This document shows, piece by piece, positions 6,648 to 43,634 of a stretch of 64,000 nt of DNA (within the stretch, counting starts at the first letter, position 1; each line of letters opens with the position of its first letter). The position numbers were made by a program, and so were the translations under genes. Source of the DNA: Escherichia virus KFS-EC; sequence record MH560358. The stretch is one strand, 5' to 3'. The notes beneath the pieces were generated by a model that made no database searches, had not been told where the DNA came from, and saw nothing but the letters and a program-made list of their open reading frames with translations.

Positions 6648-6724
6648 TACTGATTCCTCAAATGAAAATATTTATTAACAATTGTCGCTTTGCGACGTGC
6701 CGGAGGCACTGACTACTTTTTAAC

Positions 6725-6767
6725 CGAAACAAATTTTTATTATTCTAAAGATCTTTCTTCGTTTTGG
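6725..6767. repeat. copy A of a ~45-bp repeated intergenic element
   Basis: CGAAACAAATTTTTATTATTCTAAAGATCTTTCTTCGTTTTGG; near-identical to sequence at 42904-42961 and 43066-43111. Confidence 0.7.
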
Positions 6768-6836
6768 TTATGTTTTAACCAATAACTATATTTTTATACA
6801 GTAATAAATAAAACGGGTACTATACGAGGACTTCTT

Positions 6837-42195: not shown

Positions 42196-42783
42196 CTAAA
42201 TATCTAACCAAGACAAGTCAGATCCGCCCAAGATTTTTTCGACGGCGGATCTATTTTCTTGATGATATAAGTTAAAACATGGTATCCCATGTCTACGGGC
42301 AACATAAACAGCAATTCTAGTTCCTCCCGAAACGATTCCATTAACTTCTTTCGCCCAGAATATCACACAATCTACAGGATCATCAAGTGTCTCACCTAAG
42401 ACTTGAGCAACATTTCTAGAAAACAGATTTTGCATGTATAACGGTATAGAACGAGGATTATCATAAACGTGTTCTAATTCATCCATCGCCAGATTTTTTT
42501 GTTCTAAGGTTTGCCATGCAATCACATCATGACCGTTATGCTTGTGGTCATAAAACTTCCAATTTGGAATGAAAATTTTTCTATACTCTGGATCGTAATA
42601 CTTCATGAAAGCATTGTCCATACCGTAAGCCCCTCCAGAATGCGCTACAACGCGATTTTCTGACAATACCCTCCCAATGGTACTAGCCATTATCAAAATG
42701 TCGCTAGGCGCTTTTCTAGAGCCGATTAAAGCACATCTACGAAGTGGTTTTACTCCAAATAGATCTTGTAACTGGTCAAACAT
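42196..42783 (-). CDS. DprA/Smf-like (SLOG-type Rossmann fold) protein
   Basis: ALIGSRKAP...VVAHSGGAYGMDNAF and later IVSGGTRIAVYVARRHGIPCFNL resemble the DprA/SLOG nucleotide-binding signature; convergent with gp24. Confidence 0.45.
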   Translation of the reverse strand: MFDQLQDLFGVKPLRRCALIGSRKAPSDILIMASTIGRVLSENRVVAHSGGAYGMDNAFMKYYDPEYRKIFIPNWKFYDHKHNGHDVIAWQTLEQKNLAMDELEHVYDNPRSIPLYMQNLFSRNVAQVLGETLDDPVDCVIFWAKEVNGIVSGGTRIAVYVARRHGIPCFNLYHQENRSAVEKILGGSDLSWLDI

Positions 42784-42903
42784 AATATTTCCTCCATAGA
42801 AAGCAATATCATACTACAAGTTAATAACAAATACAAGTATCCGCGTAGCGGAAGCGAGCACAGCGAGCAATAAAACACTTCCAGTAATTGATTAATAAAT
42901 GTT

Positions 42904-42961
42904 CGAAACAAATTTTTATTATTCTATAAGATAAGTCTTCGTTTTGATCATAATTTAATCA
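42904..42961. repeat. copy B of ~45-bp repeated intergenic element
   Basis: CGAAACAAATTTTTATTATTCTATAAGATAAGTCTTCGTTTTGATCATAATTTAATCA. Confidence 0.7.
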
Positions 42962-43065
42962 TACATGTAAAAAACTACACAAAAGGATATCGCTTCGCGA
43001 ACTCCTACGGAGTATAACATTTGTGTTACAATATGTAGTGATTAATAATTAACCAAAGATACATT

Positions 43066-43111
43066 TTCTATGTTCTAAAGATCTTTCTTCGTTTTGATCA
43101 TAATTTAATCA
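43066..43111. repeat. copy C of ~45-bp repeated intergenic element
   Basis: TTCTAAAGATCTTTCTTCGTTTTGATCATAATTTAATCA; 24-nt identical to copy A, 26-nt identical to copy B. Confidence 0.7.
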
Positions 43112-43168
43112 AACAGTATTAATATTGTGCACATGTAAACTAAAATTATGTTAATAACAGATACAAAA

Positions 43169-43188
43169 AGCCGCCCCTAAGGACGGCT
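43169..43188 (-). terminator. possible terminator (minus orientation)
   Basis: AGCCGCC...GGACGGCT imperfect hairpin with T-run on minus strand, downstream of the 145-aa ORF. Confidence 0.4.
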
Positions 43189-43196
43189 AATGTTAA

Positions 43197-43634
43197 TTAT
43201 TTGTTGATAACGATCTGATTTCGGCGAATGGTAACATTACTCTTAGAGATGATCAGATCATCCGGCACTACGTTAGTTTTGTATGGCTGGAAGCGAACAA
43301 GCATCTGATTGCGTTTAGACCCTTCCTTAATCTTGATTTCCATCTGGATATTGTTGCCTACGTGAGCAACCGCAATTTCACCTTTATTCTCATAGACCCA
43401 CTTGCTGGTAACGTCTCCCGCAAAAGCCTTAATAACTTGCAATGCTTCGTCGTATGCGGTAGAGCTGTGAACTTTCAGAAGGCCAGCCGTAGCAAGACGG
43501 GAGCAGGTGATCGCCGGAGATTGCCAAACATCAACATTAATTTGCTCAATCAGCGTAACACCGCCCTGATCAACTGCTTTGAATGCTTCGAACATTGCCT
43601 TTTTCATTGCTACGTGGTTTTTACGGAATTTCAT
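43197..43634 (-). CDS. hypothetical protein (145 aa)
   Basis: ORF; no recognisable motif. Confidence 0.5.
   Translation of the reverse strand: MKFRKNHVAMKKAMFEAFKAVDQGGVTLIEQINVDVWQSPAITCSRLATAGLLKVHSSTAYDEALQVIKAFAGDVTSKWVYENKGEIAVAHVGNNIQMEIKIKEGSKRNQMLVRFQPYKTNVVPDDLIISKSNVTIRRNQIVINK

Follow-up and report, generated by a model that had tools for sequence, protein, structure and literature searches.

In bacteriophage T4, transcripts made at replication origins prime leading-strand synthesis through R-loops. Two of these origins, oriF (uvsY) and oriG (34), are units of about 100 bp in which a promoter without a -35 hexamer is followed by an A+T-rich unwinding element; most origins of T4 are found in late-gene regions, and oriE, oriF and oriG sit close to strand switches (PMC3016281). 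A different kind of element, the PeSL/PmSL cassettes, consists of repeated intergenic stem-loops combined with promoter-like sequence, and bears signs of recombination (Arbiol 2010; Comeau 2014). PeSLs are characterised by a near-consensus TTGACA-N17-TATAAT promoter and a stable Gn-loop-Cn stem-loop able to stop transcription arriving from upstream, and they occupy mainly hyperplastic regions before ORFans equipped with a Shine-Dalgarno sequence and a start codon. Homologous irregular hairpins of about 60-70 nt lie between genes of the virulent phage T7, where they are RNase III sites, and MITEs are short non-coding units with inverted-repeat ends that occur in several copies.

In this study we focus on a repeated non-coding element of Escherichia virus KFS-EC (sequence record MH560358), from which a stretch of 64,000 nucleotides, hereafter the window, was analysed. 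The 2.2 kb around positions 42784-43196 share 94-99% identity with 57 Krischvirus records, RB49, Phi1, JSE and GEC-3S among them; judged by these identities, the window is RB49/JSE-like Krischvirus DNA, hence from a T4-type phage. A gap of 413 bp separates a DprA-like gene (42196-42783, minus strand) from a gene of 145 aa (43197-43634, minus strand), downstream of gene 24 and upstream of gp24.3 and hoc. Across the records, its only functional annotation is the terminator of the 145-aa gene. The gap contains no conserved ORF, in agreement with the sequence-only reading, which had described these ~410 bp as gene-free: an ORF of 21 aa is intact in only two of 13 genomes, one of 18 aa starting with TTG has no ribosome-binding site, and a TTG ORF of 53 aa (42750-42911), which overlaps the start of the DprA-like gene, is frameshifted by an indel in two of the 13 genomes.

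The repeat is an imperfect palindrome of 73-75 bp, present as four copies (A to D) at three loci. The three copies of the window and the features next to A and B are the following.

42889 to 42961, no strand assigned: copy A, reading TGATTAAT...TTTAATCA, a 73-bp imperfect palindrome.
43039 to 43111, no strand assigned: copy B, 150 bp from A and in the same orientation; its minus-orientation hexamer is TAGAAC, not TAGAAT.
6710 to 6782, no strand assigned: copy C, in the divergent intergenic region between gene 3 (minus) and an 84-aa ORF (plus).
42196 to 42783, minus strand: DprA-like gene, downstream of copies B and A.
43169 to 43188, minus strand: intrinsic terminator belonging to the 145-aa gene and annotated in several records; as transcription runs, it is directly upstream of copy B.

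Copy D lies outside the window between the tail-fibre genes 35 and 36 (152.4 kb in JSE), in the opposite genome orientation. The sequence-only reading had proposed three copies of a ~45-bp element, at 42904-42961, 43066-43111 and 6725-6767. All three are present, although alignment extends each of A, B and C to ~73 bp with the limits listed above, and the fourth copy has to be added. The third had been placed near the junction of genes 3 and 2; it does stand beside gene 3, with the 84-aa ORF intervening before gene 2. The long perfect identities reported between copies are exact and not due to chance: CTTCGTTTTGATCATAATTTAATCA is found at 42937-42961 and 43087-43111, and TTCTAAAGATCTTTCTTCGTTTTG at 6743-6766 and 43073-43096, each with 0 matches in 100 shuffles. 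A micro-ORF read from the sequence of A and B (MIKTKKDL) was discarded, as it is absent from C, D and a related copy in a prophage (see below).

The element is far from randomly distributed. It occupies conserved positions in 57 of 57 Krischvirus records, nearly all of which have the four copies, and in these 57 genomes the arrangement is the same, with no gene gained or lost between A and B. Searches of the whole ~166-kb Krischvirus genome and of the prophage with nhmmer and a covariance model returned only the known copies. A and B are only 70% identical and therefore do not stem from a recent duplication; the conserved core is moreover found outside the genus. Within the element, C is 96% identical to copy D of JSE, and by eye their homology covers a unit of ~105 bp, which runs on through the hairpins and takes in the late-promoter octamers before genes 3 and 36. 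The copies resemble one another in a mosaic way (A equals C on the left, B equals C in the middle, A equals B on the right), and copy D of ECD7 has a loop of the A/B type, which together indicate gene conversion rather than recent duplication. Beyond the genus, IMG/VR contained the element in two Krischvirus contigs only, a phage collection in Krischvirus only and a plasmid collection not at all; GTDB genomes gave chance matches only, and no family carrying it emerged from metagenomes beyond Krischvirus and the prophage lineage. A literature search with sequence strings found only unrelated primers, and a literature search for a Krischvirus transcriptome found none.

Among 13 genomes, 19-21% of the third codon positions of the flanking genes are variable, compared with one of 69 columns in the core of A (42893-42961) and three of 61, all singletons, in the core of B (43054-43114; binomial P = 4e-6 and 8e-4, respectively). 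The linkers at 42962-42980 and 43115-43178 vary in the same genomes. At the locus of copy C, for which six genomes were compared, two of 78 columns vary in the element and six of 190 in the whole intergenic region, versus 27 of 197 third positions of gene 3. This pattern of variation indicates that the element is under selection.

Copy C also matches 53 of 5426 complete E. coli genomes, with ~78% identity over 80 nt. All five genomic contexts examined belong to one prophage lineage, an uncharacterised member of which, in ETEC4085, measures 35.7 kb, is inserted in hicB and encodes a serine recombinase. There the element sits in a control region of 1.3 kb that has no genes and separates divergent operons, as a conserved island in mosaic flanks, and its GC hairpins, closed by C(UUCG)G loops, stand on the same side as those of the phage copies. 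Its identity to the latter is 64-78% (nhmmer E ~1e-13) and, in a further comparison, 0.68-0.78, which equals the identity between the paralogue classes of the phage, and we thus regard it as a fifth member of the family. Prophage and Krischvirus have other DNA in common, namely 387 bp of an LprI-like gene at 94.6% identity, parts of the tail-fibre and gp38-like genes, a stretch of 82 bp at 94% that follows gene 37, and two terminator hairpins. The best-supported description of the element is that it is a selected, cis-acting, hairpin-forming non-coding cassette common to two unrelated E. coli phage lineages.

Could such a cassette be kept by recombination, with no regulatory role? As a linker or selfish palindromic repeat, it would persist by mediating or surviving homologous exchange, in the manner of the module shuffling proposed for PeSLs. 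The signs of gene conversion in the mosaic copies and the ECD7 loop fit this idea, as do the insertions around C (an HNH-AP2 endonuclease gene in genome L007, an endonuclease gene in JSE) and the several other segments exchanged between phage and prophage. We nevertheless find it very doubtful, given that diversity between genomes is far below the synonymous-site level at two loci, that the arrangement is the same in every genome, that conservation of the prophage copy contrasts with mosaic flanks, and that there are four copies only, lacking target-site duplications. A MITE was rejected on related grounds. The element resembles MITEs in being a short non-coding unit with inverted arms, that has several copies and is found in a second replicon of the host too; unlike them, it shows no target-site duplications in the flanks as read, its sites are fixed in the 57 genomes, and apart from the one prophage copy none occurs elsewhere in the E. 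coli chromosomes, plasmids and other phages searched.

The palindrome is built of outer arms TGAYTA/TAAYCA and inner arms AACCGAAAC/GTTTYGGTT, with ~30 bp rich in A+T between them; the inner arm on the right has an alternative partner in the right outer arm (TTGRTYA-N5-TRAYCAA). Each copy is accompanied by one or two GC hairpins of 4-5 bp, always on its left side in window orientation, whose loops are GTA, GGA, GAA or their complements.

42840 to 42852, no strand assigned: GC mini-hairpin beside A, TCCGC-GTA-GCGGA, as read from the sequence.
42990 to 43000 and 43002 to 43012, no strand assigned: pair of GC mini-hairpins beside B, TCGC-TTC-GCGA and CTCC-TAC-GGAG, as read from the sequence.
6684 to 6696 and 6697 to 6709, no strand assigned: pair of GC mini-hairpins beside C, GTCGC-TTT-GCGAC and GTGCC-GGA-GGCAC, with a loop polymorphic between GGA and GTA.

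Copy D is flanked by the same pair as copy C. In the 13 genomes, only column 42833 varies in the stretch 42815-42869 around the mini-hairpin of A, and one of 50 columns in the block 42981-43030 that holds those of B. Two mini-hairpins were flagged as terminator-like on the minus strand (42852-42840 and 6696-6684); they are not of the Gn-loop-Cn type.

Over 20 distinct sequences, which amount to ~5 independent lineages, the long-range helices are 86% paired versus 30-55% when slid, and the local hairpin is 85% paired. The helix formed by columns 20-28 and 60-68, 83% paired, contains each of the three pairs in which both sides change (20:68 A-U/G-C/C-G; 22:66 C-G/U-A/U-G; 24:64 A-U/G-U/G-C). Counting wobble pairs against A.C mismatches over the pair tables reveals no strand preference, and folding z-scores, which for some copies are as low as -2.6 to -3.2, point to one strand or the other depending on the copy. 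The palindromic symmetry is thus real, but it is not assignable to the RNA of one strand.

This limits the case for a structured RNA within read-through transcripts, which could serve for processing of the RNase III type, for stabilisation or for attenuation through alternative pairings, or could be a small RNA. Such an RNA would account for the pairing of the tested structure, outer helix included, for the two-sided changes in columns 20-28/60-68, for the low z-scores, for a middle arm able to pair with either of two partners, and for the C(UUCG)G tetraloops displayed on the plus orientation in the prophage. The T7 RNase III sites offer a precedent for repeated intercistronic hairpins, homologous and irregular as here and likewise in a virulent phage; unlike them, the Krischvirus element has no strand preference and is known from its sequence alone. 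The z-scores and wobble pairs point to different strands depending on the copy, covariation is weak with so few independent lineages, and the arms of a palindrome can be homogenised mechanically. B and D, furthermore, come just after efficient-looking terminators and may be little transcribed, and the element matches no Rfam family: in searches of Rfam 15 at gathering and permissive thresholds, the window gave no match, and the region and the prophage control region gave chance-level matches only. A structured RNA appears improbable to us.

Promoters were examined in several ways. The element has no TATAAATA octamer and was rejected as a T4-type late promoter. Motifs of the form (T/A)ATAAATA do adjoin C and D, where they belong to genes 3 and 36 and to the 84-aa ORF; those of the window are the following.

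6669 to 6676, minus strand: late-promoter-like AATAAATA before gene 3, within the stretch homologous between C and D; D has TATAAATA before gene 36.
6803 to 6810, plus strand: late-promoter-like AATAAATA before the 84-aa ORF, at the opposite side of copy C.

A plain sigma-70 promoter was also rejected, in either orientation: the best sites of any copy on either strand reach PWM scores of 4.5-8.9, compared with 14.8 for a PeSL and with a median of 7.6 for random 230-nt windows, and a consensus promoter scan listed nothing within the cores.

These scores bear on the relationship with PeSLs, to which the element had been said not to belong. At the level of sequence and promoter this is correct, and PeSL identity is ruled out: no copy has a near-consensus TTGACA-N17-TATAAT, and instead of Gn-loop-Cn stem-loops there are A+T-rich arms and GC triloop hairpins of 4-5 bp. 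All of the copies, four only, lie in conserved late-gene modules (beside gene 3, at genes 35/36, and between the 24.x genes and the DprA-like gene) and not in hyperplastic regions before ORFans. The likeness is one of general design, with repeated intergenic stem-loops, promoter-like sequence and signs of recombination, to which may be added that the box YCRAAACGAAG resembles CGAAACGA, found at about +3 to +10 of 12 PeSLs. The element is not mentioned in the PeSL papers examined.

A weaker cassette of this design can still be imagined on the plus strand, in which GC stem-loops and an A+T-rich upstream stretch would precede a -35 hexamer TTGRTN, an A+T stem-loop in the spacer and, at a spacing of 16/18, a -10 hexamer starting with TAT. 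It would drive the 84-aa ORF at C and a 150-aa gene in the prophage, and would produce antisense RNA at A, B and D. The site TTGGTT-17-TATATT at C, with a score of 8.9, is the best in any copy; B has TTGATC-17-TATTAA and A has TTGATC-18-TAAAAA, and for the prophage TTGGTG-17-TATGAA was read from the sequence. A gene on the same strand follows within 50-110 bp at C and in the prophage, and PeSL sub-classes with a stem-loop between or over the hexamers and an A+T-rich stretch upstream are on record (PMC2839356). Such a cassette is distinctly unlikely, however, when the -10-like hexamers have no -7 T in four of five lineages, lie in the variable linkers (42962-42980 and 43115-43178) outside the conserved core, and differ in sequence and spacing among prophage variants. 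Except at C the scores are at or below the level of random windows, and three of the four phage copies would make antisense RNA only.

The element could also be a palindromic protein-binding site, whether operator, architectural element or insulator. Recognised by a host protein or a putative phage protein, and itself starting neither RNA nor DNA, it would set up or insulate the transcription units around it, above all where late promoters diverge at C and where gene 36 has its late promoter. The symmetric arms of 5-9 bp, such as TTGRT-N9-AYCAA and the inner arms given above, suit this explanation, and so does the lack of strand bias between G.U and A.C mismatches, which is expected for duplex DNA. 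It is also consistent with the absence of a usable sigma-70 promoter on either strand, with the constant location of the element at unit boundaries, after terminators and before late promoters, and with a prophage control region rich in other short repeats, for instance GAAAGGGATT and ACCTACA. By tblastn, no DNA-binding protein common to phage and prophage was detected, which fits a host factor. More generally, if the function is the same in both, it would depend on host factors or on nucleic-acid structure, or the prophage would use the element only during Krischvirus infection. By-eye comparison with the sites of IHF, FNR, ArgR, OmpR and ArcA and with the RfaH ops consensus was, however, unconvincing. 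The most conserved block of the element is asymmetric, and arm positions co-vary between lineages (20:68 A-T/G-C/C-G) where protein binding would conserve them. The other late promoters of the genome have neither the element nor its hairpin cassette. On balance, a protein site of this kind seems unlikely.

The sequence-only reading had offered promoter or operator sites, origin iterons and homing-endonuclease targets or footprints as possible roles. The class of explanation that still fits best is a cis element of regulatory or origin type, from which the plain sigma-70 promoter drops out on its scores (4.5-8.9 against the random median of 7.6). Iterons, such as those of T4 oriE and of plasmid origins, are clusters of evenly spaced direct repeats. 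A repeat search of the whole window found no short tandem direct-repeat family in or beside the region, so that these are not iterons in the usual sense; within the unit, a motif of 9-10 bp recurs in direct-inverted-direct order, as read off alignment A2. A homing-endonuclease role is unsupported, the element being intact with or without endonuclease genes beside C.

Within this class we tentatively favour, as possible on its anatomy and context, an activator-dependent initiation module of the T4 oriF/oriG kind that reads toward the hairpins; the element may thus be a start site of transcription or of replication. The module would be read on the minus strand of the window, toward the mini-hairpins and the next gene. 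Its promoter, having no -35 and needing an activator, would comprise the invariant box CRAAACGAAG, a spacing of 9-10 nt and a -10-like TAGAAT, and the hexamer would be followed by ~35 bp of 74-86% A+T and then by one or two stable GC hairpins.

6742 to 6747, minus strand: -10-like hexamer TAGAAT in copy C, placed 9 nt after the invariant CAAAACGAAG; resembling the consensus only, with no -35.
42921 to 42926, minus strand: -10-like hexamer TAGAAT of copy A, in the same arrangement as in C.
43072 to 43077, minus strand: hexamer TAGAAC at the -10 position of copy B, in the same arrangement as in C.

Copies A, C and D as well as the prophage copy keep CRAAACGAAG-N9/10-TAGAAT, B having TAGAAC instead, and this arrangement does not occur in the genome outside the elements. 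The most conserved block, columns 42-65 of alignment A2, spans -33 to -9 when counted from TAGAAT, and in a test of composition only, the 35 nt after the hexamer contain 74-86% A+T in each of the five lineages. The end of the element that faces the hairpins and the next co-directional gene is the same at all three loci, an agreement that chance would give in about one case in four and that is statistically weak. Terminators stand upstream of B (43188-43169), of D and, further off, of C (7117-7097). No strong sigma-70 promoter was found between 7117-7097 and gene 1 (dNMP kinase), and no strong sigma-70 or late promoter between 43188-43169 and the DprA-like gene. By analogy with T4, the dNMP kinase of gene 1 is needed before late transcription.

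Since the layout matches that of oriF and oriG, we propose that the copies would start pre-late transcripts, A and B toward the DprA-like gene, C toward gene 3 and then gene 1, and D toward gene 36, and that they may double as replication origins placed within late-gene regions. We infer a transcription start at the element, its strand, the existence of an activator and any replication role from this anatomy and setting. The three loci, one at gene 3/2, one downstream of gene 24 and one in the tail-fibre cluster, are near what we take to be the syntenic neighbourhoods of T4 oriE, oriF and oriG. As in oriF and oriG, a unit of ~100 bp has a promoter-like part without a -35, followed by an A+T-rich stretch (PMC3016281); the copies lie in late-gene regions, C at and A and B near switches of the transcribed strand, and D is in the tail-fibre cluster, which recalls oriG. 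Unlike those origins, the element has no MotA box (TGCTT, near -30 in MotA-dependent middle promoters), and Krischvirus no MotA; RB49 has no known middle-promoter consensus (PMC1524935). The T4 origins, furthermore, have no common sequence, whereas the Krischvirus copies are homologous, palindromic and furnished with GC hairpins. An origin of the oriF/oriG type is defined by a persistent R-loop and by autonomous replication, during infection, of a plasmid that carries the unit, and the Krischvirus element is compared with them by sequence layout alone.

Several observations speak against the initiation module. In B, TAGAAC has lost the critical -7 T in 13 of 13 genomes, yet B is as conserved as A. 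The TAGAAT sites have PWM scores of 4.5-5.8, below the median of random windows, and the promoter reading consequently rests on a putative activator; the tblastn comparison of phage and prophage described above detected no common DNA-binding protein. The only genes that D precedes are late ones, already served by a TATAAATA promoter. In the prophage, what lies ahead on the minus orientation is ~1 kb of non-coding DNA, and one prophage variant (L034) lacks 17 bp including TAGAAT. The palindromic symmetry and the compensatory changes are left unexplained by a promoter model.

The prophage lineage has further motifs of its own. Five exact TATAAATA octamers are present, all intergenic and around the control region. 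Similar octamers (at most one mismatch, most with a TAAATA core) are found 8-85 nt upstream of 15 of the 24 prophage genes, and two of these directly follow a terminator-like hairpin. No replication genes are annotated, and family searches of the unannotated proteins of the regulatory region found none; PHROGs and Pfam were uninformative for the proteins beside the element. With no recognisable replication genes, nnTAAATA motifs before most operons and tail-fibre and other segments in common with Krischvirus, the prophage could be replicated and transcribed by helper machinery on superinfection. Dependency on T4-type helpers is conceivable, as a lead only. The fuller proposal, in which the element would be a Krischvirus replication origin or helper-recognised initiation site and the hicB prophage a satellite-like parasite of these phages, is improbable in our estimation.

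To our knowledge, no replication origin has been mapped in RB49-type phages, which have no MotA, and how, if at all, they run a middle mode of transcription is a question of its own. A conserved cassette in four copies, which is not a sigma-70 promoter and sits where non-late promoters are missing and in places like those of T4 origins, gives both questions a concrete target that is easy to test. That it also occurs in an unrelated prophage shows movement of non-coding control modules between the virulent and the temperate phages of one host. Together with the T4-late-like motifs of the prophage, the element raises the possibility of a new dependency between this prophage and Krischvirus.

The octamer CGAAACGA occurs 17 times in the genome. 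Twelve of these occurrences each lie in an early promoter of the PeSL type (promoter-early stem-loop cassettes of T4-type phages), 8-10 nt past the -10 hexamer, roughly at positions +3 to +10. Five of the PeSL sites lie in L003/L004, and seven are in the window:

1570, 2542, 60085, 62462, 62820, 63169 and 63947, minus strand, CGAAACGA at PeSLs

The octamer constitutes a conserved box of the PeSLs, of leader or operator-like type, of which the portion of the PeSL literature consulted makes no mention. A related box, YCRAAACGAAG, is found in the ~73-bp imperfect-palindrome repeat (the element).

In copy B of the element, the inner helix contains a C.A mismatch (window 43053/43097, columns 22/66 of the element alignment A2). 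Independent changes on its two sides have restored the pair in different genomes: 6 of 13 genomes have T in place of C at 43053, and genome G2248 has G in place of A at 43097. The prophage variant on metagenome contig OJJG01000368.1 (L034 6304-6392) retains both arms and has lost 17 bp of the element centre, TAGAAT included, the deletion running between two AAAGAT direct repeats. Small GC hairpins accompany the copies, and their trinucleotide loops are of the GNA type (GTA, GGA, GAA) when read on one or the other of the two strands:

6697-6709, GC mini-hairpin
42840-42852, GC mini-hairpin
42990-43012, GC mini-hairpins

Loops of this type give unusually stable DNA mini-hairpins. Hairpin 6697-6709 is polymorphic at a single position, window 6703 in the centre of its loop (GGA or GTA).

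In some GenBank records, short 'hypothetical proteins' are called across copy C, or the DprA-like ORF is drawn out across copy A. The overlapping ORF annotations, all from GenBank, are:

L048 782-877
L049 782-877
L013 359-1075
L017 914-1075

The two at copy A look like over-annotation, since a frameshift disrupts the 53-aa ORF beneath them (window 42750-42911) in 2 of 13 genomes. Two different endonuclease genes have been inserted near copy C, each in a different Krischvirus genome and neither in the window, and copy C is intact despite these adjoining insertions:

L007 2148-2681 (IMG/VR 3300045988_033703), HNH-AP2 gene between gene 3 and the hairpins, with its own promoter, TTGACA-17-TAGATT
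L005 15901-17043 (JSE), 'endonuclease' gene between the 84-aa ORF and gene 2

Of 5426 complete E. coli genomes, 53 carry an uncharacterised prophage lineage, 35.7 kb long, in which the element also occurs; strain ETEC4085 represents this lineage (NZ_CP122634.1, in hicB; L021 14700-40082 and L046 36185-46701). All five exact TATAAATA octamers of the lineage are intergenic; 15 of 24 prophage genes have a TATAAATA-like octamer (at most one mismatch) 8-85 nt upstream, the majority of these octamers retaining the TAAATA core. Several DNA segments are common to prophage and Krischvirus, namely an LprI-like gene (94.6%), tail-fibre genes and two terminator hairpins, which are 97-100% identical over 24-29 bp and share the form AAAAAAGCCAC(T/C)CCGAAG...GGCT:

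2615-2638, terminator; prophage counterpart L021 22024-22047
44315-44343, terminator; prophage counterpart L021 35920-35947

Neither the prophage annotations nor family searches of its unannotated regulatory-region proteins revealed a replication gene or sigma factor. The prophage lineage could possibly be a helper-dependent element.
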